Assembly: GCA_977020255.1 (NCBI GenBank)
Contig: CDROCS010002069.1
Coordinates: 62,001 to 126,000, forward strand
Length of the DNA: 64,000 nt
DNA from: Obrimoposthia wandeli
Lineage: Eukaryota
Direction: 5' to 3'
In this document: positions 1 to 63,004 of the stretch, one piece after another
Numbering within the stretch: position 1 is the first letter of the stretch
Layout of the letters: every line of letters begins with the position of its first letter
Notes under the pieces: model-generated
What the model was told of the DNA's origin: nothing
The model's database searches: none
Seen by the model: only the letters and a program-made list of their open reading frames with translations
Program-made: the position numbers and the translations under genes

Positions 1-3000
1 ACTTTCATCTTTAAATTTTTCTATCGCTGTATTAAGCGTCGTATAAAGCGGATGGGTTTTTGGAAATTTCGAGGTATCCAACAGTCCATCAGCAATCATA
101 GCAGGTAACAGTGATTCTTGAACATTTACATTATTACACTTCAAGAAAAAGCTATCAGTGTCACCTGCTATAATTCTAATGTCGCAGTTAAATTGAACTC
201 GATATTTCTCCAACTGCTCATATTGTAGCTCATACATACGAAGTTTGCTTAAATCTAATACCGCCTGGCCCATGTAACTAGGACGATCCAAAACAATATT
301 TTCCTTATCCAGTAAAACTGCAATAAGGACCGTATCGATTTCGATTGTCCTACGAAAGTGGGCTTTACTGCAATAGGTAACCAGCTTCTGTGGAGTATTA
401 CAAATCCGGAGGTTAATTCTTTTCATCAGATTCTCAATGAGTTTTCCAAATAAAGAATTCACCTTCAGTTTACAATAATCCCGCTCGAAATCTGTTGTAG
501 CCGCAGCTCTTTTGAGAGAATTATCCTCAATATATTTTGAAAAAACATTAGTTTGTTCAAACCGTATTGCTCTGTATACAAAATCTACCTTAGCACCAAG
601 TCTAACGTACATTTGTAGCAATCTAGAATGCACAACATAATGTTTCTTAGGGTAATGTGTTAATAACAATTTTTCAGTCTTACACCCTGGTGGACGCTGT
701 TTAATTGGAGCAAGGGGAAGATCGTCGAATTTATTATGAAGCTCAAAGGGAATGGATAAATCTATTTCCAATAAATGAGCGAAGCGACTACAGGATAAAT
801 CTACTGATTTTAACCTGGAGATAATATTCCCCAACTCTAACCGATCAGTCACCCAGGAAAAGTTACCACAAGGTAAAAACTGGGACATAGCTCACCCGTA
901 CAAATTGTTTACATCAATGTACAAAAGTTCTGTACCATTGATGGCGTCCACGCAGTGTTCATTAACAAATGTCATACCCCCGCAAATCCCAGACCGGAAG
1001 AGTCGGTACATTTCTGGATCCTGTATTAGCTCGACTCGCACAACGGGAGCAGAAGAAGAAGCCGGACGAAGCAGGGATTTGAAAGCACTTGCGAAAGTCA
1101 GTCCTGGAAATAAAAACATTTATTAAAATCATTGTGAAAATCATTACTTTGAAAATCATCTATCTAACAAAGACAGTCACGCATCTATATTGCAAATACT
1201 TGCATCTTTATGTAATCAATAGTAACATTTATTCTTATACATGTATATATATATATATGTGAGTATCTAACAAAGACAGTCACGTACTGCATCTATATTG
1301 CAAATACTTGCATCTTTATGCAATCAATAGTAAGAAGTACTACATTTATTCTTATACATGTATATATATATGTGTTAGTGTCTAAAATTAGAAAAAATTA
1401 GAAAAATACAAACCAGGGATGGAGAAGAAATTGAGTGGCTCCAATCCATCGTCAGCAATGGCCTTGGTCCGGAATGTTGTAAACACGTCTGCTAGAAGGT
1501 AGACGTCCATCTTCATATAGACCAGCATATAATCCCAGAGCGATGAGCAGCCGCTCTGAGTCCAGACCATCTTCGCCATCTCATATTGTACTGGCTTGAT
1601 CTTTTCATCCCACTTCGGCGGTAAGCTGGTGATTGATCGAAGAGCAGTCTTTGATACTGCCATATCGTATGGGAAGATTCCCTTGGCGCTCACCAGATGT
1701 TGCGGGAAGACCGAATGTGTAAGAGGAGTCACACCCAGGTTTTCCACAAGTTTTTCTAAGCTGCTGTTCAAAAATTGAAGGGAATCGATGAAACGTATAC
1801 AGACTCCTCCAATATACACCATCATAGCCTGGAATTTCTCTGTTGATTGAGGTATAACAGATACATTCCAGTCGGGAAACTTGCATAGTGCGTGCTTCAA
1901 TATGTGGTGCATGTCATAACCCATAAGATTGTGAAAAATGACGGGAAAAGATCGATTGATTCTCCTTGATAAGTTGCATTTCGTATGCGCTGCTCCCAGG
2001 TATTCGCCAGTCATGTGATCGTGATCTCGTACCTTGTTTGCGAGTTTCTTCTTACACAGATAACAGATTCTTGCTGCATTGAAACTCGATACCTGTTCCT
2101 GTGTGAGTTGTCGCATCACCTCGATCGCATGCTTCTTGTACCATGGGAGTACAACCTCTTTCGACAAGTCCTCTTATTTCTGCAAAAAGGATACCACACA
2201 AGATTCCCCGGTAAAGACCGAGTAATCATGTGTATACCCTCTCGTGGCTGCAACGGGAGACATGAGCATACCGGCCGAGATTGGAAGCTGAATCTGATGG
2301 TGGATTCCATGCGGCGGTAGCACAGCCTCAGAAGTCCGCGTAAACAGCAAAAGGCGGAGAAATCGTTTTTGAAAAGTCCTTAAACTCAATATGCTTCTCT
2401 GTAGGCATTAAATAAAGCGTTGTATGATCTAAATTCATCCTACAGAGCGGAACGTGTTTGGCGTAACTTATCGGACTACGGAATCCATGAAGACACTTAT
2501 GGCACCAAGTACACCGAATGCAATTAGATACACCTTTGTTCCTATAATTAAGCAGCCTATTGAGTTTAGGAATACCGACATAATGAAAATTATCATTATT
2601 TTCTAAAAGGAGAAGATTGATTGGCTTAGCGTCTGGGTTTGTGGTTCTGTAAATGACATCCACATAGGGATTTTTGAAGATATCTCCATCTGTGTGCACA
2701 TTAGAGAACCTATTGAATGTAAATACGTTGATTGAGAGAGATGGATTCTTTCTCTCAAATCGCGGTATATTACATAAACGCATCGGCATCTCATTCTCAT
2801 CAAAAACTAATTGACTCAAAAAGGCATCATATTGATTAACCCGATGAGGATTAGAGCGAAATACTTCGCGGAAAAGTAAAGATAAGATACTGTAAAGGAA
2901 GCAAAAAGCGTTTGAGTTCTTCACATTGATAACGCAATGTGAGAGTGCTAACTCAGATGGATTAGGTATATAACTACTTCCCTGGAGATAGTTCATTATT

Positions 3001-3879
3001 GTTGTTTTAGTCACAACAAACGAAATCTCCAGGAAGCGGTTCACTACCCAATTACTGCTACTTTGAGAATAATTCTCAATCTTCTTGTTGATTCCATATA
3101 CTCCCGCATCTATAAACCCCTCATCTATGGGGAGCCCTCTATTGGAAAAATTTCAAGCGCGTGTTTCTTCAATATTGGAAAATTCAACACGCACCCCGAA
3201 TTGAACCTTGCAAGTCGCAAACTTGCTGACTGTGTCCCTTAAGCTAGTCAAAAAGGGATACAGGAACTTGTAAATCGATTAGATTGTCATTAGAAACATC
3301 TAATGACAATGTCTCAATCGTGCCCCGAAGACTAGTCTTACGCTTAACAGCATCAACCCTGGAAAACTTCGCAACAGAGCTACCTGAAGTGGGCATAACA
3401 CTTCTCTTGCGGGTAGATGCTGGTAACGGCGCGGGGATCATACCAACTGGAGGAGGCATAACTGGAACCATTGGTGCAGCAGATGGTGGCGAAGCAACTG
3501 GACTAGTAACTGGAACAGCAGCAATTGGGGTAGATACTGGGACAGCAACAATTGGGGCAGCAATTGGCGAAGCAGCAACAACTGGACCAGCAACCCGAGA
3601 AATAGTAGCAGATCTATTCTGAAAGATGGCCTTCTTGCCACGTTGCTGGAAATGACGAAGATGGACACAATGACGCGCCACAAACTCCGGCCAATCAATC
3701 TCCTCCGCGGAGAGACATACTGGACATACGTAGAATTGTTGTCCGTTGAACTTCTGTCAAAAGTAGCTCTTCATTTTTCCGTCACATTCCTTGTGACTCT
3801 CCTCAAAGCATAATTCTTTGTTCATATTGCAATTCTAGAAAGAAATAAATTAGCAGAAAAATAACAATAAACTTACCAT
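1..3879 (-). pseudogene. polB: Protein-primed family B DNA polymerase, copy A. Predicted exons 3877-3879, 1414-3834 and <1-1103
   Basis: Motifs YADF, DHDHMTG..CN, IFHNLMGYD, FIDSLQFL, KGIFPYD and IDVNNLYG*AMS. The C-terminus matches 58853-60064 (KLKVNSLFGK, IAGDTDS). Stops at 3757-3759, 3153-3155, 2174-2176 and 892-894. Frameshifts near 3250 and 2330. Confidence 0.93.
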
Positions 3880-4010
3880 TTTCAATTTCGTTTATAATAG
3901 GGGATTATTTGTTGATTGATGCTTGCTTATATACTATTTTCGAGCTAGTATTAAGCCAATCAGATTCATTCATTATTTAAACCAACCAGATTAATTTAAA
4001 ACAGAATAGT

Positions 4011-4520
4011 TTACTGACAGATGTGAGTAGTTGAATTTTCATTAATATTTAAATAATCCAAACTAGCTGCAAAGCATTTCTTGTATGCACAATGCTCGCC
4101 ATGTTTAATATATGAACAATTGATATTTGATGAATTTAATTGTTTTAATGTTTTCGAGTAATTTATCACTCTAAATTCAGGAAAATATTTATTGATTGTC
4201 TTTATTTTAGCTCCATTATTTTCATCCAAAACATAGAAAATTGATTTGGATACATCACAACCACGTTTTATTTCCTCAGTTATTTCTTGTATCTTGAAAT
4301 AACTATTACCATCAACTAGTTTTAGTCGATGGTAATGCTTAATGAGATATCTATTTATTTTTCTTGATTTTCTATTCATCATGTCCCATATGGGTTGCAT
4401 TTTAAAAACATAATGTTTAGGATAGAAGATTGCATTCACATCCATTAAACATAGTTCTTTTATTACATATTCAGTATTATTATCAATAAAATCTTCAAAA
4501 TCAATAAAATAAACAGCCAT
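4011..4520 (-). CDS. DEDD/DnaQ-like exonuclease-fold protein with C-terminal Cys/His cluster
   Basis: N-terminal YFIDFEDF..YVIKEL resembles ExoI, and the C-terminus has C..H..HCA..C. Intact 169-aa ORF. Family assignment is by motif only. Confidence 0.55.
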   Translation of the reverse strand: MAVYFIDFEDFIDNNTEYVIKELCLMDVNAIFYPKHYVFKMQPIWDMMNRKSRKINRYLIKHYHRLKLVDGNSYFKIQEITEEIKRGCDVSKSIFYVLDENNGAKIKTINKYFPEFRVINYSKTLKQLNSSNINCSYIKHGEHCAYKKCFAASLDYLNINENSTTHICQ

Positions 4521-4556
4521 TTTTATAGCAGTAATTTTATTTGATATTGTTTATAT

Positions 4557-4934
4557 CTATTGTTTATGCTTTAACCAAAGCAGACAGAGTTGTCCACATG
4601 ACTGTGTTAAAATATTTAGATAATGTTTCTTACTAAAATGTACTTTCTTTCCAGAGTCAAGTACTGTAGATACTAATTTAGAAGGGTAATATATCCCAAA
4701 GGGGTCAAAAACAAAGATTTCATTTTCTTTAACATGTATTGCAATCCAATGTTCACCACGCAAATTAGATGAATGTGTATTGATTACATATCCACCTAAA
4801 CGAGTCAAAGAGGGGATATGATCAAGACTGTAGACTCCATTGAAACGCGAACCGAGTAGTTTTCTTCCGCTTTTTGTTATCTCGTCCGAACTAAAATATA
4901 TATTAATTAATAAATTCAAACTGACTTACTTCAT
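4557..4934 (-). CDS. Adenain-like cysteine protease. Predicted exons 4930-4934 and 4557-4890
   Basis: Catalytic H (GEHW), D (FDPFG) and Q..C (TQSCG). ATGAA|gtaagt...ttttag|TTCG gives MNSDEIT. Confidence 0.92.
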
Positions 4935-4963
4935 TTATATCTTCTTTATTGTTTTCATTCTGT

Positions 4964-6193
4964 TTATACTAGTACTGTTCCTCCCTTGGTAATTTGAACC
5001 TCAGAATCGAATACTCCATAGATTATAATATTAGTAGGATGTTCAAGTGCTTTTAAAAACTTGATTTCTACTTTCAAATTTCCCTGTTTAGGGATTTGAG
5101 CTTGATTAATATCGAAATCAGGAGAGAGAACAAATGTGAACAGTGTATACTTGTCCTTGAAATCAGTCATTGAAATTCCAATATTAGCATCCTTATCCAA
5201 ATGACCAAGATTTCTAATTAAAGATTGCACATAAGAAAACACATAATCATTATTTTCAAAGTTATTCGTATAAGATTCTTGATAATCAATATTTCATGCA
5301 AGTTTAATTGAACTCACATTCATGTGTCCAAATTGAGAAACCTCATTTTTAGACTCACCTCCATAGGTAGACGTGTTTTGGAAAGCAATTAAAACAAAGT
5401 TTGGAAGTTGCATATCACCAAAAATCTGATTCTTGTAATAAGATAGTGCCCCCGTAGGGATAGCGTGAGAAACAAGATTAGTTTTTCTAATAGGATAACA
5501 TGCATTTTGCTTCTCCAACCCTATTCAATGTGCAACAAGTACAGATGGTTCCACCTTTACTCTACGAACCAGCAGTTTTGCTTCCGTAATCTCAATTGCG
5601 GTTTTAATAGTATCGTCGCAAACAACACTAAAACCTACTGGATTTCTCTTCATTCGAATATGTGCACTTACACCGGGTAAAAGATACTTTGGTTGCTTAA
5701 AGAAATCCAAATGGAGACTCCCATAAAGTGACAATACTTTAGATTTCGCAATCGAAGCTGTTCTTCTTTTTTCATCATTGTCAAACCCAATTGCATCAAG
5801 ATTAATCAATTTCGTATCATTACCGTAATTCAACAATGTTTCAATCATTGCTTTATGACTGTAACTAGTATTATTTCCCTCAACTTTCACATTATTGAGA
5901 CTGAGAATCACATCCTTGAAAAGAGTATGCAACATGTAATTAGCTGATTTGATATCCATATCATCATCCAAATCACATCCACCTTCCTTTGTAACTTTCA
6001 ATTTAACGAGAAATAAACTATCATTCAAATCAAGATATTGAGTATTGGATCCATTAATATTGAATTCTAAATCCGGAGAAGATGTCCCGTTAACCGTATT
6101 TGTCGGAAATATTTCTTCAAAACTAGCACTATCAACCACAACCTGAGGTATAGGTTTATCGAATATACACAATTCAGTTTTAGCACAACTCAT
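4964..6193 (-). pseudogene. Major capsid protein (double jelly-roll), about 409 codons with two in-frame TGA
   Basis: ORFs 5525-6193, 5294-5518 and 4964-5242 lie in one frame separated only by TGA at 5525-5527 and 5294-5296. Polinton MCP-like motifs ELCIFDKP, YLDLNDS, FFKQPKYLLPGV and YTLFTFVLSPD. Confidence 0.9.
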
Positions 6194-6555
6194 TACTTAA
6201 AAATTGTTCCACCTAGTTTCAAACGTTTGTTTATACCCGATGCTTTAGATGTTTTCTTACGTTTATAACCACTTCCCTTTTGAGTTTTCTTTTTCAAAAA
6301 TTCAGCTAGACTTGGTGAAATTTCATTCACCTGATCCAAGGCTGCATCCTTTAGTGTGGGAAGAAATTTCTCATCACTAGACAAGTATTTTGATCCAACA
6401 TTAGCAATAAATTTCCCGAGTAGCTTGAGTAGTGGGAAAGCAAAGCGACCAAAAACCTTCATCCATCCTGATCCATACTGTTTTCCGGTAAAATAAGGCA
6501 AATCACCTCCTTGCATCGGTTTACTATATGCATCGATTATACTTGAATCAATCAT
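6193..6555 (-). CDS. Small basic putative virion core protein
   Basis: MQGGDLPYFTGKQYGSGW and QKGSG motifs, Lys-rich tail, position between penton and MCP. A diverged homolog lies at about 25760-27095. Confidence 0.75.
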   Translation of the reverse strand: MIDSSIIDAYSKPMQGGDLPYFTGKQYGSGWMKVFGRFAFPLLKLLGKFIANVGSKYLSSDEKFLPTLKDAALDQVNEISPSLAEFLKKKTQKGSGYKRKKTSKASGINKRLKLGGTIFK

Positions 6556-7574
6556 AATTTACGAAAATGAACCGTTAAACTTGTTTTAGCTCCGTAAGCA
6601 AATGTAATTAATCTTCCAGAATCATTACGTATATTAACTTCAATATTGTTTATAGAAGAAGAACTCACGGGAATATACATTGGATTTTCAATTGGAATAT
6701 GTATAACATCACCATACTTGTGCTTTTCCTGTTGAACCCAAATTGCTTTAATTAAGGGAAGTTTCCTTCTTCCTACGAATATTGGTTCGGTAATACTCGT
6801 GTAGATATAAATCTGATTATATGCATTAGTCATTTTAGGAATAATCTTTGCTTTGAAAACCTCATTTTTATTTTCAAATTCATTTTCATCAAAACCGATA
6901 ATTGAGGCTAATGATTTATCCAAGATGATTTTATCAATATTGGATTTCAATTTGAAATGAATCAATTTATTAACTAGTTTAAAGTTTTCAAATACATTTG
7001 GTAACACTGTTTTAAAATGTTTACACATACTTTTGCTATCAGCAAAAAGAAAATCATTGGGAACTGAATATATTTTCCTCTCGCGTTTAACGAATCTGTT
7101 TTTTATCTTGAATGTAATTATCGGATACTTGACATGATTATCCATAATTTGTGAAACTGCATGCTTACCTATTTCAACTTTAGGCGGAAATCCATATTGT
7201 TCTGCAACAATTTCATCATTAAAAACTATTTCAAAATTATCCCCTTTTCCCATAATTTGAATTCGATTCTCTTTATTTAAAAAGATTGTGAAATCATCGC
7301 CAGCCTTAATACGAGCCAAATCCATTTGACCCTTATCAAATAGTAAAGTCACATCAGTTACTTTATCAGCTTCACGTTGAGTAATATATTCAATCTCAGT
7401 TTCACTTTGAATAGATAGAGAAGAGTAATTGAAAGAAAATTCCGTAAGAGCAGCTTCCCAACCACCAGGTAAATTGATTGAGCTTTGATAATCAATACTA
7501 AAACTATTAGCAGTATTATTCGGTTGAGTTAATGGCGAACCATTACTTGGTAATACAACATACATAGAGTTCAT
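6552..7574 (-). CDS. Minor capsid protein (penton)
   Basis: N-terminal YVVLPSN..PNNTANSF..WEAALTEF and C-terminal IEVNIRNDSG..TVHFR. The ATG at 7574 overlaps the integrase stop (ATGA). Confidence 0.88.
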   Translation of the reverse strand: MNSMYVVLPSNGSPLTQPNNTANSFSIDYQSSINLPGGWEAALTEFSFNYSSLSIQSETEIEYITQREADKVTDVTLLFDKGQMDLARIKAGDDFTIFLNKENRIQIMGKGDNFEIVFNDEIVAEQYGFPPKVEIGKHAVSQIMDNHVKYPIITFKIKNRFVKRERKIYSVPNDFLFADSKSMCKHFKTVLPNVFENFKLVNKLIHFKLKSNIDKIILDKSLASIIGFDENEFENKNEVFKAKIIPKMTNAYNQIYIYTSITEPIFVGRRKLPLIKAIWVQQEKHKYGDVIHIPIENPMYIPVSSSSINNIEVNIRNDSGRLITFAYGAKTSLTVHFRKL

Positions 7575-8583
7575 TCTATTTGAGAAGCTAATATCCAACT
7601 AGGTTCAGTATATCCATGCCACTTAACATGATATTGTTTATGCTTTCCTCTACTTTTTGTCTCTAAAATTTCTTGGATTCTATATACATTTGGTTTCTCA
7701 GGCAAGACTTGTAATTCCTCATGATAAAATTTACCCGTGATTACATTATTGGTTTCATCCTCAATGAAATACATTACCGGCATACGTTTATTATCCATTT
7801 TAGTTATACGAAATACTTCATCGCTCCAATTCTCTTTGAAATTCTTTATAAAAGGAGTAGTACTAATTTGAGAAATACGTACATAATCACCAACTTTATA
7901 CTTGGGTTTCCGCGCAACTTGACTTTGGTTACGGCGTTGCCAAATTTCCATAGCATTCTCATCTGTAACATCAACGGGTCTCTTTCGGTCTAATGATTGT
8001 ATGCATGTATTATTTGAGGTAAAACAGTAACCCAGGACTTATTTCCCTGCTTTGTGAAATACCTTTTCAAACGATCTCTCAATGTTCGATTAAAACGTTC
8101 AACTAAAGCGGCTTTATATTGGGAAAATACTGAGTAATGATTAATATTATGTTTTTTCAATAGTGTTTCAACATGTTTATTATAAAACTCCTTTCCACTA
8201 TCCGTTTGGAAATTTCTTGGTTTTATTTCTTTAATCAAAAGCTTCATTGCGGCTAAAACATCGGTACCAGACTTAGACTTTAATGGAATAGCTCGTGCGA
8301 ATCTGCTAAAGACATCAACACAAGTTGAAATATATCGATATCCGTTGTTAATACTCGCATACGGAATCATTTCCATCAAATCTGCTTGCCATAAATCATT
8401 CGGGCCGCTCGTTTTGTATGATCTCGTTGGGAACCGACGTCTCATTGGTTTGTTTAAGCTGTAAGCTAATTGATTTCTCAACCACGCCTGAGTTTCCTGC
8501 TTTGTCTTCTTTGACTCTTTTGCTAATTTTGAAACCCCTGTGTAACCAACGGGATGACTTGGATCGAACCATATTTTCTCCAT
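7571..8583 (-). pseudogene. int: Retroviral-like DDE integrase with C-terminal chromodomain, frameshifted near 7990
   Basis: WQADL, FQTDSGKEF and VERFNRTL catalytic motifs. The frame jumps from YNH to DRKRPVDV, consistent with a small deletion. Chromodomain-like YHVKWHGY..PSWI. Confidence 0.93.
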
Positions 8584-8680
8584 TGCAGCAAGACGATTTG
8601 ATTTTTAAATTGAATTTAGGAATAGATGGAAATGATCCCATATATAAATTCATATTATTGATTCGAATTTATGTTTATAA

Positions 8681-9103
8681 TCATCGGTTCATTAGTCTAC
8701 TAGCAAGTGCACCAACTATTGAGCTAATAATTGGTACGAGAAATCCTAAAAATCCACCACTTTGCTTATAAAGCAACTTACGTTTACCGATTCGTTGTTT
8801 GGCATGAAACAAAGCAAGTAGAGGTTTCTTATGCCGATTCAGGTTAGCCTTGACAATTATTTTACCAGAAACTATTTTCTGTATCATATTAAGTAAATCA
8901 TCAATTACAAAAGTAGGGAATGATTTAAGAATAGCTGGGCGGCGAATAGCAGGTGCACGCATGAGAGAATTGAAATAGGCAATATTCCTAGATTTCTTAA
9001 CAACAGTTCTTTTCGATTTTTGAGCAACCATTTTCCTTGCACTTAAAACTGATTTAATCAATTTTTTAACTTCGGGTTTAACAGTTTCCTTTTTAAAATT
9101 CAT
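8681..9103 (-). CDS. Basic Polinton structural protein ending in a QSGG-FLGFLVP amphipathic segment
   Basis: Lys/Arg-rich 140-aa ORF. The QxGG motif followed by a hydrophobic helix resembles conserved Polinton structural ORFs. Confidence 0.7.
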   Translation of the reverse strand: MNFKKETVKPEVKKLIKSVLSARKMVAQKSKRTVVKKSRNIAYFNSLMRAPAIRRPAILKSFPTFVIDDLLNMIQKIVSGKIIVKANLNRHKKPLLALFHAKQRIGKRKLLYKQSGGFLGFLVPIISSIVGALASRLMNR

Positions 9104-9750
9104 CTTCTCAAAACTGGTTTCTTTGTTTGTTTATAGACGGTTATTCCCGATGGATTGAATACATCAGTTCTAACTCTAAAGTCATCGGGACAATCTTGAG
9201 TAAAATCAATAAAAATGTATCCATGAGGAATAGTAGTTGCATCTTGAAATGAATCAATTAAAAACTTTCTATTATTCGGGTAAGCTTGTCTTGAAACAAA
9301 ATCAACAACCGTCTGATCACGTGGATTCTTTAAGAGAACAAGGTAATGTACATTCAAATTACGAGTTCTATGGTTCCCTCCTTGATGAAATAGATTTTGT
9401 GTGATGAAAATAACAGTTACTTCCCGATGTCGTGCTATTTTAGTGAATAAATTATTGAAATCACTCTCTTTATTTGCTTCTTGATATAAATCATCAATAA
9501 CAATAACATCATGTCGTTGTAATCGCTCAGACCAATTATCATCGAATCCATTAATGACTTTTATATTTTTGATTTTCTTAAACTCTTTACTGGTTAAACC
9601 AGCTTCTCCATCTCCTCCCTGATGCCAGTATATTTTATTAAACTTAAAACTAAAGTATTTATTATTTTGCAGTAATTTACATACAAAATGTGTTTTCCCA
9701 CTACCACTAGGACCTACAATCTGAAAAACTGAATTATTTTTTAAGTTCAT
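9100..9750 (-). CDS. FtsK/A32-like genome packaging ATPase
   Basis: Walker A GPSGSGKT, Walker B VIVIDD, then ARH and ITQN motifs. Intact ORF. Confidence 0.95.
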   Translation of the reverse strand: MNLKNNSVFQIVGPSGSGKTHFVCKLLQNNKYFSFKFNKIYWHQGGDGEAGLTSKEFKKIKNIKVINGFDDNWSERLQRHDVIVIDDLYQEANKESDFNNLFTKIARHREVTVIFITQNLFHQGGNHRTRNLNVHYLVLLKNPRDQTVVDFVSRQAYPNNRKFLIDSFQDATTIPHGYIFIDFTQDCPDDFRVRTDVFNPSGITVYKQTKKPVLRR

Positions 9751-9810
9751 ATTAAAAATATTAGATTATCGGGATAATGTTTATAAAATAAAACTATTTA
9801 AAATATTTTA

Positions 9811-10077
9811 TTACGAAACATCCAGCAACAAACAATAAAAAAAACTCTTCTCGTAGAAAAAGCTCCTTTTCTCTTCTTTGTTTGCGAGTTTCTTCTGATT
9901 GTATCCCTGAATGAGAAGATTGACTGCCTTGTCGTGCACCATTCTTCTTACGTGCTCCTCCAGGGGTAGATTTGAGACATCAATGAGTTGCAGGACATCT
10001 GGTTCTATGACATTCTTCGAGATGAAGCTCTTCACCGCCTTGTCAACATCTTGCTTGAAATAGTTTGGAGTAGACAT
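9811..10077 (-). CDS. Hypothetical 88-aa protein
   Basis: ATG at 10077 is preceded by the GTATATAAGC box (10107-10116) also seen upstream of polB. Confidence 0.55.
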   Translation of the reverse strand: MSTPNYFKQDVDKAVKSFISKNVIEPDVLQLIDVSNLPLEEHVRRMVHDKAVNLLIQGYNQKKLANKEEKRSFFYEKSFFYCLLLDVS

Positions 10078-10144
10078 AATGATGATGAAGAAGTAAAAAG
10101 TAATCTGCTTATATACTATACATCTGAAATCTGATTGGTTAATA

Positions 10145-10250
10145 AATACACTGACTAATAAAGACACTAAAGACACTAACTAATAAAGACACTGACTAAT
10201 AAAGACACTGACTAATAAAGACACTGATTAATAAAAACACTGATTAAAGA
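10145..10250. repeat. Tandem repeat of about 16 bp (ACTAATAAAGACACTG), about 6 imperfect copies
   Basis: Directly visible. It lies between the phosphatase-like gene end and the next promoter. Confidence 0.85.
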
Positions 10251-10266
10251 TAAAGACGAATAAAAT

Positions 10267-11266
10267 TTACACATGATAACGATTAAAAATACGTATTTGA
10301 TGAAGCATAGCTTCATTAGGAGCAGCAATAGTCCGTTTAGCTTTAACAAGATTCGAAGCAGCAGTAACACCAATCGAATGAGATAAAAATGCAATAACAA
10401 TGCAAGCAGCATGTTAACTACCATAATGACCACATACTAAAATCTTACCACCATTTTCGATAGTTTCTTTAATTATATTATTAGTCTGTTTATAATACTT
10501 CATTATTGTTTCTCCTAATTTTGAGTTTACAAAGACAGAAGTATATTTTAATTTCTTATAAGATATTTTATCCAGTATAGATGTATTGATTACATGAGTG
10601 AAATTGGAGTTCAAAAGATTAGTTTCATCAAACCCATCTCGATAATTACCAATATATGATTGATTTACTAAAATCTCACTCATCGCTGTTTTGTTTAACT
10701 TTTCTACATTAAGTTGAGTAAATCTAGCACTAAACAAACAATCAAAAAGATGGGTCATGTGGTTCATTTCCATACTCGAAGCATGAGCTATTATGGGTTC
10801 CATAAAAGCCAAAGCATTTAAAAAATCTATCCGTCTCTTATCTTCAATAATTGGATCTATAATAATTTCTTCTTCTATCGTCACTTCATCAATAGTTTCT
10901 TCTCTTCTTATAACTGTTGTTGTTGTTGCTGGTGGTGATGATGTTGCTGGCGATGATGTTGCTTCTGGTGCTGAATTGATTTTCTCCAATTTATCAATTC
11001 CGAGTCAATTTAGTCTTATATATTAAACAAGGTTTGATTTCATTGGATCATCAGTTTCATCATATGATTTGATTGGAGTATTATTCAACCTTTCCATTGT
11101 ACTTAACATCTCATGTAAATGTAGTTGATGACGTAACCTAAACAGTTAAATAAACTACATATAAATATTACTCATGATTATTTTTCCTTATTAAAGCATT
11201 GAGAATAACTGAAGCAAGATCTTTTAATGCATCCTGAACCTCTTTACATTCAATAATTTCATCCAT
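10267..11266 (-). pseudogene. Dual-specificity-phosphatase-fold gene with a degenerate active site. Predicted exons 11172-11266 and 10267-11137, three in-frame stops
   Basis: Reading through the stops gives SEIL..SYIGNY..FTHVIN..GGKILVCGHYGS*HAACIVIAFL..VKAKR..APN..LHQI, matching the DSP pattern. A phase-2 intron at 11138-11171 joins the frames. Confidence 0.8.
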
Positions 11267-11307
11267 TTTATGATAAAGCAAATCAAATATTGTTTATAAC
11301 CCATGGA

Positions 11308-11379
11308 AAATCTATTTTAGACCACATTACAACTATTTGCAACTATTTGCAAGTAATGACATGTGATGTCTTTGTCTTT
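11308..11379. promoter_or_regulatory. Block of about 72 bp duplicated at 13047-13119, containing the TGCAA-N4-TTGCA palindrome
   Basis: Near-identical direct repeat. Each copy sits just upstream of a gene start. Regulatory function is inferred. Confidence 0.6.
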
Positions 11380-11937
11380 AAGATAAATCTATTTTTAGCA
11401 ACATTACGACTATTTGGTTGTTTAGGAAATAAATAACACAAGTGTGAAGATCTATATTAAACAAAATACATTCAATCAGATATTCATAATTTAAAGATTT
11501 AACACCGAGTATCATAATTTTCCCGCTAGCAAAAATGTTCACGCATAGGGGATTGTATTTGACGTATCGAAGTCCCGGGAAGATTTCTGGCTCGTAAACA
11601 GCTTCCAATCCCATACTCTTGCTCATCTTGTTTAGGTTTATTGATGTTTCTAGATTGCTGCTGAGACTGATTGATTGGATTCTTTCTATTTTTATATCAA
11701 AAGGAAGACTGCTTTCATCCAGCACTGTTTTGCAACCCATTATTCTGCATGTACCTAAATTATAATTATATATAAATGTAAAAATAAATTACCAGATTTG
11801 AAAATGATAATAGTGTAACCATCACACTTGAGTCGATACTGATGAGGCTTCGAAGTTCGAAATGGTAAGTGTTGAATGTTACTTACAACCATTCCGTTGT
11901 AATTAATATTCACTAATTTGATATTGTGAAGTAGCAT
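11378..11937 (-). CDS. Divergent TATA-binding-protein-fold protein, 173 aa. Predicted exons 11793-11937 and 11378-11754
   Basis: Removing the 38-nt GT-AG intron gives IIIFKSGTCRIMGCK (repeat 1) and YEPEIFPGLRY..VNIFASGKIMILGVKS (repeat 2) in one open frame. Confidence 0.85.
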
Positions 11938-12000
11938 TTATGATTATTATAAACTGATTTCTTCTATTTATACAATTTGAACATCTATTTTTAGATTTGC

Positions 12001-13002
12001 TTAATTGCCTATGCTATGAAATCTAATATTTCTTACTTGTCTAATAATAATTGTCTTGCAATATGGACATGTAATAAAACGATCTGAACATTTAATACAC
12101 GTGTTTAAGTGACCGCATGGTAAAAATGCCACGGAAATCGCATCGCTCATGCAAACAACACACTCGGGATTTGGTAAGAGGTACTCGAGATAATTTATAC
12201 GATGTTTTGGTTCAGATTTTATTTCTAAAAATCTTAAATCCGTTATAAACTCATATATAGAATCATATTTGTTACCGAATGTTTTAAACCTATTAACTAA
12301 AACGGCTTTGATTCTATCATGGCTATAATCACGTTTCAGCAAAACTATTTGACGAGTTTCCATCTGAGCATCAATTTCATCATTACTAATATGATATTCA
12401 ACAATACATCCGTTCTTGATTCCCATACTAGATGCTTTACAATCTCGAGTATGAAAGATTCTTTCGGGCATAGTATCAATAAGGTCAAGTCGGGGTACTG
12501 CTTTCCGACAGAAACAACATCGATAAGAATCATTCCAAATATATACATTATCGAAAATCGATAATGTAGGTATTTCAATATCATTAGAATAATTATTGCG
12601 CACAATAGCTACTTTATCCATTGGAGTTGTATCAAAATCAATTTGGGTGGTGTTGGAATCAATTATTGGTACGTTTGAAACATTCATTTTCAAAACAAAC
12701 GGGCATCTTGGGAAAAATAGCTGATGTCGCTTCATTGGTTTCAGATAGTACTCCCATCCCGATATTCCTCCCTGACAGTAAATACACTTTACATTATCTT
12801 TCGAATCATCGTGCTTGTAAAATCCTGCTTTTGCTAAAGCTTTCTTATCGGCTAAACCAGTAAACTTTGCTTGTAACGATTCTAATCTTCTTTCTTCATA
12901 TATCATATTTTCATTTATTCTTGAAATATTATCAAAACGCCGTCGTCTAATAGTGAGTTCTCCGTTTTCTGAAACATAATGTGCAATAAATTTAGTAGTC
13001 AT
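12001..13002 (-). CDS. iap: Inhibitor of apoptosis protein: BIR, degenerate BIR-like, UBA-like and C-terminal RING
   Basis: RLESL..AKAGFY..VKCIYC..GW..H..FPRCPF (BIR) and CVVC..FLPCGH..CIKC..CPYC (RING). Intact 333-aa ORF. Confidence 0.93.
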   Translation of the reverse strand: MTTKFIAHYVSENGELTIRRRRFDNISRINENMIYEERRLESLQAKFTGLADKKALAKAGFYKHDDSKDNVKCIYCQGGISGWEYYLKPMKRHQLFFPRCPFVLKMNVSNVPIIDSNTTQIDFDTTPMDKVAIVRNNYSNDIEIPTLSIFDNVYIWNDSYRCCFCRKAVPRLDLIDTMPERIFHTRDCKASSMGIKNGCIVEYHISNDEIDAQMETRQIVLLKRDYSHDRIKAVLVNRFKTFGNKYDSIYEFITDLRFLEIKSEPKHRINYLEYLLPNPECVVCMSDAISVAFLPCGHLNTCIKCSDRFITCPYCKTIIIRQVRNIRFHSIGN

Positions 13003-13046
13003 AACAAAATTGAATGATGAAATTGTCTAGCTTATATAGTAAGTGA

Positions 13047-13119
13047 AAATCTATTTGTAGACCACATTACAACTATTTGCAACTATTCGCAAGTAATGAC
13101 ATGTGATGTCTTTGTCTTA
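13047..13119. promoter_or_regulatory. Second copy of the 72-bp block, between divergently oriented iap and the + strand gene
   Basis: Matches 11308-11379. Flanked by TATA-like boxes at 13030-13039 (minus) and near 13120 (plus). Confidence 0.55.
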
Positions 13120-13154
13120 GTATAAACAATATTTTGATAATGATTTTATTGAAA

Positions 13155-13859
13155 ATGGATAATCAAAATAATCAAAATAATGAAAGTAGAGCTAGTACAT
13201 ACATAGGTTCTGGTAGTAATTTATATTCTAATATGAATTATAATAGAAATAATCAGAGAGAAAATATTAATCCATCAAGTCAAACAATAACAAGTCCTAC
13301 GCGCGTAACCGAAGAACGTGAGACCTTTAAGGATATGACAAATACTAGACGATAAACAAGAATGTTAACCAATTGAGACTAATCGATTTTCATAAACAAG
13401 AATATCGACCAATTAGAATCGAGCTTTGGAGGATAAACAATTGAATATTTCAATTTATAATTGTCAATATGAATTTCGAAAAGCTATATCAACCTATGCA
13501 TACATATTATGGATATGAGATGCACTTTTTGAAGAAAGCTCATAACTATAATTTTATTTTTCTTGTCAACATCGAGCCGCTAAAAATTTGATTTTGAAAT
13601 ATCAAATTTGACTTCTGTGGATAAAGAGAGAATCAATATTCTCTTGACTCAATTCGGAATCAACTATGCGCTTCAGGAAAACAAATTCGTAATCAAAGGA
13701 TCAACTGCCACTTTCATGCATGAGAATGGAACAATATACGAAGCACCTCCTCCTAAGCTAGAATGGATTATCTCAATCAGAATTCAAGGATGCAAGATCG
13801 GGCCCAGTGGATTGGAAACACCGATATGGAAAATAATTGATGCTGTTAGAGTTGACTAA
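13155..13859 (+). pseudogene. Frameshifted gene or genes of unknown function
   Basis: Asn/Gln-rich ORF followed by coding-like broken frames that end in the 83-aa ORF 13608-13859. Confidence 0.45.
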
Positions 13860-13980
13860 TAAATTTTTGTGTCTTTATTTGTATTATTTTATATATATAA
13901 ACAATAGTGATACTTTAATATTTATTATGAAAATGACTAAAAAACCTACTAAATAATTAAAGACTAAGGTTAAAAAGACT

Positions 13981-14292
13981 ATGAGTAAAAATACTATGAG
14001 TAAAAAGAAAATCATGGAGGGTTTGGGTATTCATATGATGGCGGCAAATCTTTTAGGTAGATGGTTTGGCGGAGTTGATAAAAAAGCTATAAAGCACAAA
14101 AAGAATGTGGATTATTTGAGAGGTATACAAAATCAGAAACGAGTGCAAAAAGGAGATGGTATACAAAAAGGGGATGGTATGCTTGATATTTTTGTAAAAT
14201 TAGATAAACTTACAAAAGCATTTGAAAAGGATCCTAGTGCCTATCTTGGTCCAAAACTAAACTTTTTAGCAAACCAACCAAAAACTTTGTAA
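13981..14292 (+). CDS. Lys-rich protein with two QKGDG motifs, putative core protein
   Basis: 103-aa ORF. An upstream in-frame ATG at about 13928 is cut off by one TAA. The motif resembles QKGSG and QSGG in the structural ORFs. Confidence 0.6.
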   Translation: MSKNTMSKKKIMEGLGIHMMAANLLGRWFGGVDKKAIKHKKNVDYLRGIQNQKRVQKGDGIQKGDGMLDIFVKLDKLTKAFEKDPSAYLGPKLNFLANQPKTL

Positions 14293-14304
14293 TTACATTG
14301 CAGT

Positions 14305-15108
14305 ACGTCTTTGTTAGACACTCACACACATATATATATATATATATATGTATAAGAATAAATGTTACTATTGATTACATAAAGATATATATACTTGTAA
14401 TACTTGTTACATAAAGATGCAAGTATTTGCAATATAGATGCGTGACTGTCTTTGTTAAATATAGGAACGTTTAAACATTATTATCAAATTATATAATACT
14501 TTATTTTATAAGTAGATAATTTAAATAAATAATAAAACACACACACGATATGTATTTTGTTGAATTGGTGTTAATACAGTCTTTAGATAAAAAGATATAT
14601 AGATTTAAAGTATGTTACTAAAAATAGAATATTTTTGACCTCACCATGACCTTAAGTTGTCCTCATAACGTCATGACCTTAACTTGACCTTAACTTGCCT
14701 TGACCTCATGAGGTCATGACCTTAACTTGACCTTAACTTGCCTTGACCTCATGAGGTCATGACCTACATCTTGTCCTCATCGTGACCTTAAGTTGTCCTC
14801 ATGAATTTAAATAAAAAATCATGTGTACTCGGGAGAAATTTGACCTACATCTGTCATAAAAAATTTGAGTTCAAAAATTTTCGCGCTAATTTCAAAAATT
14901 TTGCGCAAATTTCAAAATTTTCATGGAAATTTCAAACATTTTTAAAAAATTTCGCGCAAATTTCAAAAATTTTGACCTATATTTCAAATTTTTCGCGGAA
15001 ATTTCAAAATTTGACCTAAATTTTTTGTCCTCATCAAAAAATTTGACGTACATTTTTGACTTGTCCTCAGGGGGGGGCTTTGTTCCAGAAGTGCCACATC
15101 TACCTACT
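14305..15108. repeat. Right terminal inverted repeat region of copy A
   Basis: The outer ~48 bp and about 14305-14805 are reverse complements of copy B 57743-57790 and about 57998-58620. The intervening part is unique and AT-rich. Confidence 0.9.
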
Positions 15109-22135: not shown

Positions 22136-23410
22136 TATGTTATAATAAAGGTGCTCATGGGCAATAAAAAGTTAATGGATGTAGGTGTAGATTCAAACAT
22201 TGAACATATTTTAAAATCAAAAGTGTCTCAATGCAGGTAGACTAATTTTGTGCAAAAGTGCAGTTTAAAAAAAGTCAACAAATAAACTAAAAGTTAGTTA
22301 ATTCAACATATGGCTTTACTGTTTAACAATAACTTTGTAACTGAGATTGGTAAAGATTGCTAATTATATTGAGTTAAATAAATGGATTGGCTCTAGTTAG
22401 AATAACGATGTTAGATTTGTTTTAATCTAGATTTATCTTTCGTGGCGCGCATACATTCTTTCACATAGATCTCTTCAACTCTCACATTCCATTGTTAACA
22501 TACAAAACAGTGATAACATTTGCTTCTTGTATAGCGTGTTGACCATCCTAAAAAGAAATATAATTACTCTGTACAGAGAACGTTCAAGTAAACACACCCC
22601 TTTTCAAACGATTTGTGGCAGCATGGAATATATTTCCCCGTTAAAGTAACTGCGATATCTAGTTTTGAACACATGAATAATTTGTGTATTAATGTATTCA
22701 GATTTATTATCGATATCCGAGAAAATGTAACAGAATAGCCAAAATAACGGGACTGCGGTCAATTTAATTTTGCTTGAGCAAACAATAAATTCCACTATGC
22801 TGCAATTCCCAATTTATATGATTTCTAAATTTAGATAATGGAGCCTTACCGGTCATGAAAAGGTGTAAGTGGTGTTACAGATGTGTTAGGTTTGAGAATT
22901 AAGAAATTTAAATATTTTAGTCGATTAAATACTAAAATAAAAATCCTTGAAAGCAAGGTTGAAAATTAAATTAAATATTAATTTTAGTTTTAGAATTGAA
23001 ATTAGTGGAATTTAGGGTAAAAATTAGGAGGACCACGAAGGTCGTGTATAATGTGAAATGTATAAAAGTTAAATTAATTAACCCAAAAGGCGAACATTAA
23101 GCATTAATTAAGAAAAGGAAGTTAATTAGTAACGTCAATCAAGAGACGTCAATCAGGAAAGGTAAGCACATTTTAAGTGCAATAAGGCTAATCAATTTCA
23201 GATTATTCCAGAAGAATTCCAGTTCGCCTATTTTTCAGCTGTCGATTGATTGACAGACTGGACACTATATAAGTCAGACCAGAACGCACATAACACAGAC
23301 TAGAAAAAGAAAAGGGAACGAAGGAAATCGATATCTCCGACCGACAATCCACCACGAATCGGTAAGTAGTGATCGAAAGTAGATTAAAATTAATTTAGAT
23401 TTTTAGTCCT

Positions 23411-23790
23411 CCGTTCGAAGTAAAAGTTATTGAAGTAATCCGTTCGAAGTAAAAGTTATTGAAGTAATCCGTTCGAAGTAAAAGTTATTGAAGTAATCCG
23501 TTCAAAGCAAAAGTTATTGAAGTAATCCGTTCGAAACAAAAGTTATTGAAGTAATCCGTTCGAAGTAAAAGTTAGTTATTGAAGTAATCCGTTCGAAGTA
23601 AAGGTTATTGAAGTAATCCGTTCGAAGTAAAAGTTATTAAAGTAATCCGTTCGAAGTAAAAGTTATTGAAGTAATCCGTTCAAAGCAAAAGTTATTGAAG
23701 TAATCCGTTCGAAGTAAAAGTTATTGAAGTAATCCGTTCAAAGCAAAAGTTATTGAAGTAATCCGTTCAAAGCAAAAGTTATTGAAGTAA
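23411..23790. repeat. 29-bp tandem repeat, about 13 copies, inside LTR B
   Basis: Unit CCGTTCGAAGTAAAAGTTATTGAAGTAAT is directly visible. Confidence 0.92.
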
Positions 23791-23909
23791 TTGAAGTGAA
23801 AATCTCCGTACAAATCAATTTATTCGAAGACAATTCCGAAAAGACCCTACGGACCCTGCATCGGACATCCCACTAGTCGCAGTAATTGGTAAGCCGATCG
23901 ACTAGAGCA

Positions 23910-24345
23910 TTCATTGCCCCTAGTTGGCAATTAGGACACCTTCATTACCCCTTGTTGGTAATTCTAAATTTTGACCTAGTAAACAAATTCATTGTCCCTA
24001 GCTGGCAATTAGGATTTCCGACTCTTTAACTAAATCATTGCCCCTAGTTGGTAATTAAGATCAGCTATTTATTCATTGTCCCCAGCGACAATTAGGAATC
24101 ATACCAGACTTTTTGCCTGTAAGAATCATTGTCCCTAGCTGACAATTCGGTTCATTCATTGTCCCTAGTTGACAATTCGGACAAATACTCATTGTCCCTA
24201 GTTGACAATTCGGTAAGACTCATTGTCCCTAGCTGACAATTCGGCTCGTTCATTGTCCATAGTTGACAATTAGGAGTAAGTTTTTCATTGTCATCTTGAC
24301 AATTAGGTTTTTAGGAGACCCATTGTTCACAGTGGACAATTCGGG
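23910..24345. repeat. About 12 interspaced palindromic repeats (CATTGTCCCTAGTTGACAATT) inside LTR B
   Basis: The conserved ATTGTC-N7-GACAAT unit is separated by unique spacers of about 8-35 bp. Confidence 0.85.
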
Positions 24346-57742: not shown

Positions 57743-58464
57743 AGTAGGTAGATGTAGCACTTCTGGAACAAAGCCCCCCCTGAGGACAAGTTCAGGTCAA
57801 GTTGAGGACAAAATTTTTTAAGGTCAAGTTGAGGTCACGGTGAGGTCAAAATGTAGGTCATGACCTCATGAGGTCATGGGAAAACCTAGGTCATGACCTC
57901 ATGAGGTCATGACCCCCCTATGCTCAGGACAAAGACATTTTGAGCATACCCCCGCCCCCTTGAGCACAGTTTAAGATCACGATGAGGACATGACCTCATG
58001 AGGACAACTGAAGGTCACGATGAGGACAACATGTAGGTCATGATCTCATGAGGTCAAGTCAAGTTAAGGTCAATGTACTTTAAGGTCAACTTAAGGTCAT
58101 GACGTCATGAGGACAATGTACTTTAAGGTCAACTTAAGGTCATGACGTCATGAGGACAATGTACTTTAAGGTCACGGTGAGGTCAAAAAGATTCTATTTT
58201 TAGTAACATTCTTTAAATCTATATATCTTTTTATCTAAAGGTGGTATTAACACCAATTCACCAAAAGACATCTCGTGTGTGTGTGTGTGTTTTATAATTT
58301 ATTTAAATTAAATTATCTTCTTATAAAATAAAGTATTATATAATTTGATAATCATGTTTAAACGTTCCTCTATCTATCTAACAAAGACAGTCACGTACTG
58401 CATCTATATTGCAAATACTTGCATCTTTATGTAATCAATAGTAATAAGTACTACATTTATTCTT

Positions 58465-58511
<47 letters not shown>

Positions 58512-58720
58512 AGTGTCTAACAAAGACAGTCACGTACTACATCTATATTGCAAATACTTGCATCTTATGTAATCAATAGTAACAAGTACTACATTTATTC
58601 TTATACATGTATATATATATATATATATATGTGAGTGTCTAACAAAGACAATTATCAATACCTACAAAGACAGTCACGTGTGTCTAACAAAGACAATCAT
58701 CAATACCTATAAAGACTGCT
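57743..58720. repeat. Left terminal inverted repeat region of copy B, with AGGTCA array and subrepeats of about 125 bp
   Basis: About 18 exact AGGTCA hexamers in 57790-58190, followed by CTAACAAAGACAGTCACG units. Confidence 0.9.
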
Positions 58721-58852
58721 GCACCTATATTGCAAAAACCTGCAAATTTATGTAAATACCAATAATTTTAAAATAAAGACAAGTATTTCTAACACATATA
58801 TTCCTTAAAATTACAAAGGAGAATAAAAATATGTACAACACATATAAAAAGT

Positions 58853-61800: not shown

Positions 61801-61916
61801 AAGTAGCTCTTCATTTTCCAGTCACATTCCTTGTGACTCTCCTCGAAGCATAGTCGTTTATTCATATTGTAATTCTAGAAAAATAATAAATATAGAAATA
61901 ACAAGAAACTTACCAT
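58853..61916 (-). pseudogene. polB: pPolB copy B. Predicted exons 61914-61916, 60501-61874 and 58853-60278
   Basis: Same intron positions as copy A. Lesions are a deletion of about 1.1 kb at about 61158, a 1-bp deletion near 60259, and TGA at 60068-60070. Polymerase motifs B and C are intact. Confidence 0.93.
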
Positions 61917-62071
61917 TTTCAATTTCGTTTATAATAGAGTTATTTGTTGATTGATGCTTGCTTATATACTTTTTTCAAGCTAGTATTAAGCCAATCAGAT
62001 TCATTCATTATTTAAACTAATCAGATTCATTTAAAACAAATCAGAATAGTTTACTGAAAGATGTGAGTAGT

Positions 62072-62560
62072 TTATTTTTCATTAATATTTAAATAATCCA
62101 AACTAGCTGCAAAGCATTTCTTGTATGCACAATGCTCTCCATGTTTAATATATGGACAATTGATATTTGATGGATTTAATTGTTTTAATGTTTTCGAGTA
62201 ATTTATCACTCTAAATTCAGGAAAATATTTATTGATTGTCTTTATTTTAGCTCCATTATTTTCATCCAAAACATAGAAAATTGATTTGGATACATCACAA
62301 CAACGTTTTATTTCCTCAGTTATTTCTTGTATCTTGAAATAACTATTACCATCAACTAGTTTTAGTCGATGGTAATGCTTAATGAGATATCTATTTATTT
62401 TTCTTGATTTTCTATTCATCATGTCCCATATGGGTTGCATTTTAAAAACATAATGTTAAGGATAAAAGATTGCATCCACATCCATTATACATAGTTCTTT
62501 TATTACAAATTCAGTATTATTATCAATAAAGGCTTCAAAATCAATAAAATAAACAGACAT
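62072..62560 (-). pseudogene. Exonuclease-like gene, copy B, with premature TAA
   Basis: Collinear with 4011-4520. YPK has become YP*. Confidence 0.6.
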
Positions 62561-62597
62561 TTTTTATAGCAGTAATTTTATTTGATATTGTTTATAT

Positions 62598-62975
62598 CTA
62601 TTGTTTATGCTTTAACCAAAGCAGACAGAGTTGTCCACATGACTGTGTTAAAATATTTAGATAATGTTTCTTACTAAAATGTACTTTCTTTCCAGAGTCA
62701 AGTACTGTAGATACTAATTTAGAAGGGTAATATATCCCAAAGGGGTCAAAAACAAAGATTTCATTTTCTTTAACATGTATTGCAATCCAATGTTCACCAC
62801 GCAAATTAGATGAATGTGTATTGATTACATATCCACCTAAACGAGTCAAAGAGGGGATATGATCAAGACTGTAGACTCCATTGAAACGCGAACCGAGTAG
62901 TTTTCTTCCGCTTTTTGTTATCTCGTCCGAACTAAAATATATATTAATTAATAAATTCAAACTGACTTACTTCAT
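62598..62975 (-). CDS. Adenain-like protease, copy B. Exons 62971-62975 and 62598-62931
   Basis: Translation is identical to copy A, with the same 39-nt intron. Confidence 0.92.
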
Positions 62976-63004
62976 TTATATCTTCTTTATTGTTTTCATT
63001 CTGT

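Follow-up and report, generated by a model that had tools for sequence, protein, structure and literature searches.

A conserved miniature TATA-binding protein of a Polinton lineage is a candidate late-promoter factor

Most large DNA viruses with TBP-like proteins bring their own RNA polymerase. In beta- and gammaherpesviruses, a viral protein with the TBP fold (vTBP) is paired with a TATT box before late structural genes and works with the RNA polymerase II (Pol II) of the host, as outlined in the relevant part of PMC4893493. The sections on ORF24 in a preprint (bioRxiv 2025.08.25.672222) describe a vTBP that lacks the acidic TFIIB stirrup residues and is predicted to clash with TFIIB, and that carries extra domains and functions in a six-protein viral complex. 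TATA-binding proteins are also mentioned, in an excerpt of PMC10675990, in mirusvirus-like elements. For Polintons, the legend to Fig. 5 of Starrett et al. 2021 (PMC8502044) names a TBP-like gene in a virus with an adintovirus-like PolB; in the portions of that article covered here this is a legend label with no accompanying analysis, membership of the family described below cannot be read from the label, and the characteristic peptide words of that family were not found in the portion covered of one accompanying supplement file. The covered text of PMC10748475, PMC11071308 and PMC12220804 contains no TBP passage on Polintons, and the openly available Polinton, Maverick and adintovirus literature searched for TBP, TATA, late promoter and intron, with subscription papers and Repbase reports outside its scope, yielded no analysis of the family. 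The gene described here bears on the way in which virion genes are expressed in Polintons and on the possible need of these elements for a helper virus.

The gene encodes a small TBP-family protein, here called mini-TBP, and lies in a Polinton of Obrimoposthia wandeli. The window, by which we mean the whole stretch of DNA analysed, comprises 64,000 nt of contig CDROCS010002069.1. As an earlier preliminary description of this DNA had proposed, the carrier is a 16-kb Polinton: the element measures 16,294 bp, within the 15–20 kb typical of Polintons, runs on the minus strand through positions 1..15108, its left end lying 1,186 nt ahead of position 1, and has terminal inverted repeats flanked by a 6-bp target duplication. 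Its genes comprise polB, protease, capsids, integrase, ATPase, phosphatase, mini-TBP, iap and SSB. The defining Polinton pair of pPolB (PF03175, E 9e-12) and a retroviral-like integrase (PF00665, E 2e-14) was identified with Pfam, as were the A32-type ATPase, IAP and the phosphatase; the labels of the capsid, protease and core genes are ones that we assume from position and homology. The copy is decayed, with premature stops in polB and the major capsid gene, and the word 'intact', applied initially to the TBP-like gene, holds for that gene alone. A 74-bp direct repeat of 97% identity (11306..11378 and 13045–13118) flanks a cassette of mini-TBP and iap.

Several other features of this DNA were recorded. 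A second, internally deleted copy of the element, with 95–97% identity, occupies 57743–64000, and the window stops short of its TBP region. Candidate GT-AG introns of 42 nt (3835–3876) and 39 nt (4891–4929), located by eye on the minus strand, stand immediately behind the start codon in polB and in the protease gene, and homologue matches start just past them. A segment of ~290 nt in polB (~1117–1408, minus strand), with GT and AG at its edges, is composed of repeats that also occur in the subterminal region; it is also found in the second element copy and is absent from relatives such as L061. Outside the element, a 29-nt tandem array with related repeats lies at 23347–24345.

The mini-TBP gene consists of two open frames on the minus strand (11937–11755 and 11740–11378). 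Thirty-eight candidate GT-AG pairs would join them in frame, and the shortest join (11792–11755, 38 nt) gives exactly 173 aa, in agreement with the spliced 173-aa TBP-family gene originally postulated. Exon 1 (11793..11937, minus strand, 145 nt) would encode strands S1–S4 of a remodelled repeat 1, with Pro31 at the position of the first Phe and Phe46 kept. The putative intron (11755..11792, minus strand, 38 nt) is AT-rich, has GT-AG ends and interrupts in phase 1 the Gly codon of IFKSG. Exon 2 (11378..11754, minus strand) would encode S5, a short non-helical linker in place of helix H2, the complete repeat 2 with the YEPE stirrup, Phe107, Arg111, Cys119, Asn121 and Phe123, and a variable tail. 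The motifs YEPEIFPGL and IFASG of repeat 2 and IFKSG of repeat 1 are all present, as first reported. Exon 1 shows 39–94% identity to relatives; exon 2 matches the Pfam TBP family with an E-value of 1.5e-12 and 47.6 bits (cut-off 22.9) and is matched by 35 PDB TBP sequences. The variable tail comprises the C-terminal ~18 residues and runs into a worn copy of the 74-bp repeat, and the window protein has 41 residues after the last strand versus a median of 23 in 113 proteins.

Relatives of mini-TBP are numerous. Among the profile-search matches listed, 120 proteins of 131–192 aa show 38–61% identity, and a full HMM search returned 57 clusters (50% identity) with E <= 1e-30. The survey of Polintons suggested at the outset found homologues in many of them: all six own-genome regions around divergent copies contain Polinton core genes, and module genes such as ATPase, integrase or capsid were seen in 11 of 24 metagenome loci, the other loci being contigs of 1–5 kb. 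Searches of viral contigs with the mini-TBP alignment, the ATPase, an ATPase alignment or host TBP gave no match, and phage records held no match. Identity to host TBP and its paralogues is 20–30%. In a tree of 23 rows (15 mini-TBPs, host TBP, a second host TBP, host TRF and five other cellular sequences, with archaeal and viral TBPs and one fragmented host TRF2-like gene, L033/L036, outside its scope), a long 100/100 branch separates the 15 mini-TBPs from the 8 cellular sequences, and the mini-TBPs are not nested among host paralogues. Judged by these comparisons, mini-TBP belongs to a widespread clade of ~150-aa proteins far from host TBP and the TRFs and is not a recent capture from this host. 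The host's own TBP family numbers at least four genes (loci L031/L032, L033/L036 and L034/L035), which are TBP and a head-to-head paralogue, one TRF2-like gene and, present twice, an intronless divergent TRF; several TFIIB-family loci occur as well. A more divergent mini-TBP (35% identity) at L067:1589–1834 adjoins iap in yet another family.

To describe the fold, a model was computed with AF2 and 121 sequences for L044, a natural intronless relative that is 49% identical to the window protein. The L044 model (pLDDT 95) contains ten strands and two helices, both in repeat 2, and matches cellular TBPs with TM scores of 0.67–0.76; the structure match has a Z-score of 13.9 and an rmsd of 2.4 with 144/144 residues aligned, and matches to viral TBPs are weaker. 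The TBP fold expected from the motifs is thereby predicted for the mini-TBP family, as a two-repeat, ten-strand saddle modelled on this relative rather than on the window protein. Canonical TBPs have four helices, with a basic H2 on the convex face. In the model the repeat-1 helices H1 and H2 are absent, with a short coil in place of H2, and the linker from S5 to the next strand is 19 residues long in mini-TBP versus 32 in host TBP. The loss of these helices is larger than that of the single Phe to which attention had been drawn, although the Phe is indeed missing: where canonical TBPs have four intercalating Phe, mini-TBPs keep three (F39 in 121, F98 in 120 and F114 in 121 of the 121 sequences), and the first is Pro in 121/121.

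Other residues on the functional surfaces are similarly constant. The stirrup acids E94 and E96 occur in 117 and 121 of the 121 sequences and each in 51 of 55 further strong matches, so the family retains an acidic TFIIB stirrup. The polar residues R102, C110 and N112 (120, 121 and 121 sequences) align with yeast I194, V203 and L205, a mapping made by alignment for which we assumed the F190 and F207 numbering. Changes at I194, V203 and L205 let the yeast variant TBPm3 bind TGTA, according to part of PMC1636458. The pertinent sections of PMC10005294 identify the second stirrup Glu as the main TFIIB contact and report that loss of kinking Phe in TRF2 accompanies loss of TATA binding. The overall residue pattern is kept in 47–49 of the 55 further strong matches and fades in weak ones. 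From residue conservation in these 121 + 55 sequences, repeat 1, which had been called eroded, is better described as remodelled and conserved across the family, and the DNA face of mini-TBP looks re-tuned rather than dead.

Aligning upstream regions across families brought out a DNA word, (T)ATAAACA. In the virion-gene blocks of 10 elements its core, ATAAACA, ranks first among 7-mers, with 78 sense and 2 antisense occurrences versus 14.1 expected, an excess whose p-value is inflated by the shared ancestry of the 10 elements. In the polB regions of the same elements ATAAACA occurs 5 times versus 4.1 expected, and the canonical ATAAATA is not enriched in the virion-gene blocks (20 versus 23 expected). 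Among the 72 ATAAACA sites with a downstream ORF, 23 lie 30–40 nt before the ATG and 8 more at 40–50 nt. Within 70 nt upstream, the word precedes 12/12 ATPase, 6/8 pVII-like, 6/9 minor capsid, 5/7 major capsid and 4/5 orf4011 genes, and 0/7 integrase, 0/8 chromodomain, 1/7 orf6193 and 0/19 mini-TBP genes. In L083 and L094 the ATPase gene points away from its neighbour, so that ATAAACA in these loci is not a 3' signal of an upstream gene.

The Polinton in the window carries ATAAACA on the minus strand at several places. The copy at 9778..9784, 34 nt before the ATG of the packaging ATPase, is a candidate late promoter. The next, at 9128..9134, falls within the ATPase's conserved YKQ end and precedes the pVII-like gene by 31 nt, and a further one (8672..8678) lies ahead of the integrase region. 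One copy stands 67 nt before the minor capsid gene (7635..7641) and another in the 3' end of this gene, 98 nt before orf6193 (6647..6653). The remaining copies precede the major capsid gene by 41 nt (6228..6234), the protease gene (4961..4967) and, as a pair at 4548..4567, orf4011 by 47 and 34 nt. Sites that overlap the end of the preceding gene retain the word in varying reading frames (YKQ, INK, HKQ). Of the Ile-Asn pairs no more than 150 nt from a stop, 23 of 36 are written ATA AAC, versus 6 of 64 elsewhere, and the one family that lost ATAAACA in the minor capsid gene carries it in the following gap. Within coding sequence, too, the word is thus conserved as DNA.

A second Polinton group from the same genome, found by its capsid and represented by seven non-independent stretches of one family in none of which a complete element is shown, has 20 copies of ATAAACA versus 31 expected, and mini-TBP was found in 0/7 of its 20-kb stretches. 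Pox_A32 and polB family searches for Polintons lacking mini-TBP led to mini-TBP-bearing elements or to a fragment. In this second group (L146–L159, with a PF21738-type capsid), a T-rich run plus AAAAA stands directly before many ATGs. Poxvirus late promoters resemble such a run before the ATG. By analogy, this hints that the host harbours Polintons with another mode of transcription, one that perhaps depends on a helper.

We consider it probable that mini-TBP is the Polinton's own late-promoter factor, which would read (T)ATAAACA and bring in host TFIIB and Pol II. The course of events that we infer would begin early, with host TBP reading canonical boxes before polB, iap and mini-TBP. The host would then, in all likelihood, splice the mini-TBP transcript, and the protein would bind the non-canonical (T)ATAAACA before the packaging, capsid and protease genes, where its conserved acidic stirrup would likely recruit host TFIIB and Pol II. 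The H2 surface of cellular TBP is the contact for TFIIA, TAF1, Mot1/BTAF1 and Brf1; loss of H2 would take this surface away, and mini-TBP would act outside TFIID and be free of the usual brakes. On this account the idea that a Polinton TBP redirects Pol II to viral promoters is retained, with ATAAACA in place of the target first suggested. Counting against this reading are the missing kinking Phe, the integrase, chromodomain and most orf6193 starts that ATAAACA does not precede, and the mini-TBP genes that have no canonical TATA nearby. A more specific version, a one-protein early-to-late switch across this 16-kb Polinton lineage in which a TFIID-free ~150-aa TBP tuned at the TBPm3 positions would alone steer TFIIB and Pol II to ATAAACA, is put forward tentatively, with the balance tipping slightly against it.

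The word could instead be read by a host factor, either host TBP acting weakly or a Forkhead-type protein, with mini-TBP doing another transcription job, for instance at host promoters. ATAAACA fits a Forkhead-type site, and the T that precedes 55 of the 78 sites turns them into TATAAACA. In a plant assay described in part of PMC10005294, TATAAACG kept 27% activity; a TATAAAC box can therefore still serve host TBP, though less strongly, and ATAAACA does not require a viral factor. A weak host reader does not, however, account for the specific requirement for C at position 7, given that ATAAATA is not enriched, nor for the lack of motif enrichment in the same-host Polinton group in which no mini-TBP was detected. 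We regard a host reader as unlikely, though worth keeping in mind.

Another alternative is that mini-TBP is a decoy, which would tie up TFIIB or host TATA boxes and damp host (antiviral or apoptotic) transcription alongside IAP. Such a role would suit a protein that retains the stirrup and has lost H2, and it would give meaning to the repeat-bounded cassette with iap seen here and to the adjoining iap in L055. Nevertheless, TFIIB sequestration, which had been offered as an alternative, is the less likely part of the original proposal, given that conservation is as high among the DNA-facing residues as in the stirrup. These residues are invariant and unlike those of host TBP, neither of which a decoy for host sites would need, and iap is present in just 4 of the 29 loci clustered. 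A decoy is a somewhat weaker candidate again than a host reader.

It is quite improbable that mini-TBP binds the TATATAAGC box, the target proposed in the preliminary description. The box is found at all three places reported, on the minus strand before polB (3925..3933, with a reversed CCAAT box upstream), before orf9811 (10107..10115, with a CCAAT box ~20 nt upstream) and before iap (13030..13038), and a fourth copy lies at 61960 in the second, partial element copy. Four copies compare with 1.0 expected, a count reached in 1 of 100 shuffles, and the three copies in the element, all on the sense strand, speak for the proposal. Even so, TATATAAGC fits the ordinary TATA consensus, TATAWAWR, as given in the promoter section of PMC10005294; it is missing from the region upstream of polB in each of 4 further stretches (the start being uncertain for L079) and precedes early-type genes, and for these reasons it is an unlikely target. 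Furthermore, TATATAAG precedes just 1 of 19 mini-TBP genes and 0 virion genes, the specificity positions of mini-TBP are non-canonical, and the lineage-wide word is ATAAACA. The mini-TBP gene itself has a canonical TATA box, TATAAATA, at 11965..11972 on the minus strand, ~30 nt before its ATG, which is likely its early promoter; TATAWAWR within 70 nt precedes 8 of 19 mini-TBP genes, and for the other 11 no canonical TATA lies within that distance. Five 16-nt tandem-like repeats (10143–10247), a possible enhancer array, immediately precede the CCAAT and TATA boxes of orf9811.

The TBP fold might also have been reused outside transcription, for example in bending DNA termini during replication or packaging, since mini-TBP is often found beside the SSB gene and polB. 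There would then be no reason for the TFIIB stirrup to stay invariant, and ATAAACA follows gene starts rather than termini; we hold this to be very improbable. The SSB-type gene (13466–13856, plus strand) is small and frameshifted in the window, with another example at L102:9282–9665. It is present in 18 of the 29 loci clustered, often adjoins mini-TBP and sometimes occurs in two copies. Its product is predicted as a T7 gp2.5/Enc34-type OB-fold (pLDDT 92; middling Z-scores of 7.8 and 7.2) with many giant-virus matches, and it was rejected as a transcription partner of mini-TBP on account of this SSB fold.

The gene for the late-promoter factor proposed here would have to be spliced, and comparison with relatives points to the 38-nt segment as an intron. 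In the same genome, nine loci from a different family (the L044 group) are intronless, as are three database proteins, with one continuous frame that reads IFKT/S, 6 nt and then CR-MGC, which is the register predicted by the 38-nt splice. At the same Gly codon, unrelated AT-rich GT-AG segments are found in L055 (39 nt) and in the metagenome contig L097 (40 nt), and a different one of ~40 nt in the L043/L046/L049/L051/L054 group, all in lineages with ~50% protein identity; among these same-site introns AG is lost in two copies and GT in one. The segment thus combines GT-AG ends, a restored frame and a common position with diverged sequence. The genome contains at least 150 copies of the gene at 93–100% identity, and a DNA search spanning the intron found at least 21 places. 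Of 30 copies fetched from the same genome and picked by exon-2 score, 29 conserve GT-AG and 16 satisfy the test applied for an intact gene. Intron-bearing lineages form an open fork among intronless ones in a repeat-2 tree, which fits one gain or parallel gains. Four runs of one sample, unlabelled as to RNA or DNA, contained no joint over the segment among 15/17 joints and carry no weight either way. A same-site intron would imply passage through the host nucleus and spliceosome. Among 150 listed database proteins, 14 (P0155, P0159, P0163 and 11 others) start exactly at the Met just past the intron site, as would be expected from an intron-blind gene caller, which hints at a widespread intron.

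Purifying selection acts on both exons. Variants in sequencing contigs comprise 22 synonymous and 14 non-synonymous changes over both exons (ratio 0.17, p 1.5e-7), and the intron has 1 variant and 0 at its ends in the same contigs. We prefer this ratio to a per-copy pN/pS of 0.15 against the window because the latter counts window-private changes 29 times and uses copies chosen by exon-2 similarity. That the 38-nt segment is a disabling insertion and the window family makes no full protein is scarcely credible, since the missing segment-skipping joint comes from runs of unlabelled kind and is set against selection on both exons, the GT-AG ends in 29/30 copies, the unrelated 39–40-nt GT-AG segments that L055, L097 and the L046/L051 group have at this codon, and a host TBP intron of just 47 nt (by eye).

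The proposed pairing of a promoter factor with a late box of the same element can be tested with a small protein and short oligonucleotides (TATAAACA, TATATAAG and TATAAAAG). Mini-TBP is also a natural experiment in which some TBP surfaces (H1, H2 and one Phe) can be spared and three residues may tune specificity, and an orthogonal TBP–promoter pair could serve as a tool for eukaryotic gene control. If the one-protein switch is true, it would be the smallest natural pair of this kind and a strong sign of a virus-like productive nuclear cycle without a helper virus.

Mini-TBP can be placed among known systems as follows. Cellular TBP and TRF2/TBPL1 (PF00352; 7egb_P, 1ytb, 1mp9, 2z8u) are alike in the saddle, two repeats per chain, the YEPE stirrup and three of the Phe. 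Unlike them, mini-TBP is ~150 aa long, shares 20–30% identity, lacks H1 and H2 of repeat 1, has Pro for the first Phe and carries Arg, Cys and Asn at the TBPm3 positions, and it forms a separate 100/100 clade. Other Polintons/Mavericks (adintoviruses) have in common with this lineage pPolB, integrase, ATPase, protease, two capsid genes, terminal inverted repeats and the 6-bp duplication, and the additions of the mini-TBP lineage are mini-TBP itself, an SSB of the gp2.5 type, short introns and the two promoter words. A TBP fold is also encoded by large DNA viruses (Heterosigma akashiwo virus, Aureococcus virus and those with homologues of ASFV B263R); 26 BFVD matches with E <= 0.001 are 186–990 aa long and 8–21% identical to mini-TBP, and the Polinton, in contrast to most of these viruses, lacks an RNA polymerase of its own. 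With the vTBPs of beta- and gammaherpesviruses (EBV BcRF1, KSHV ORF24, HCMV UL87), mini-TBP shares a non-canonical TATA word before structural genes, here ATAAACA, and BcRF1 is a weak fold match to the mini-TBP model (E 2e-3). Compared with ORF24, mini-TBP keeps the stirrup and is a bare ~150-aa domain for which no partner gene was found. The best reading, drawn by analogy, is that mini-TBP is a late-promoter factor like the herpesvirus vTBP, yet not a member of that system.
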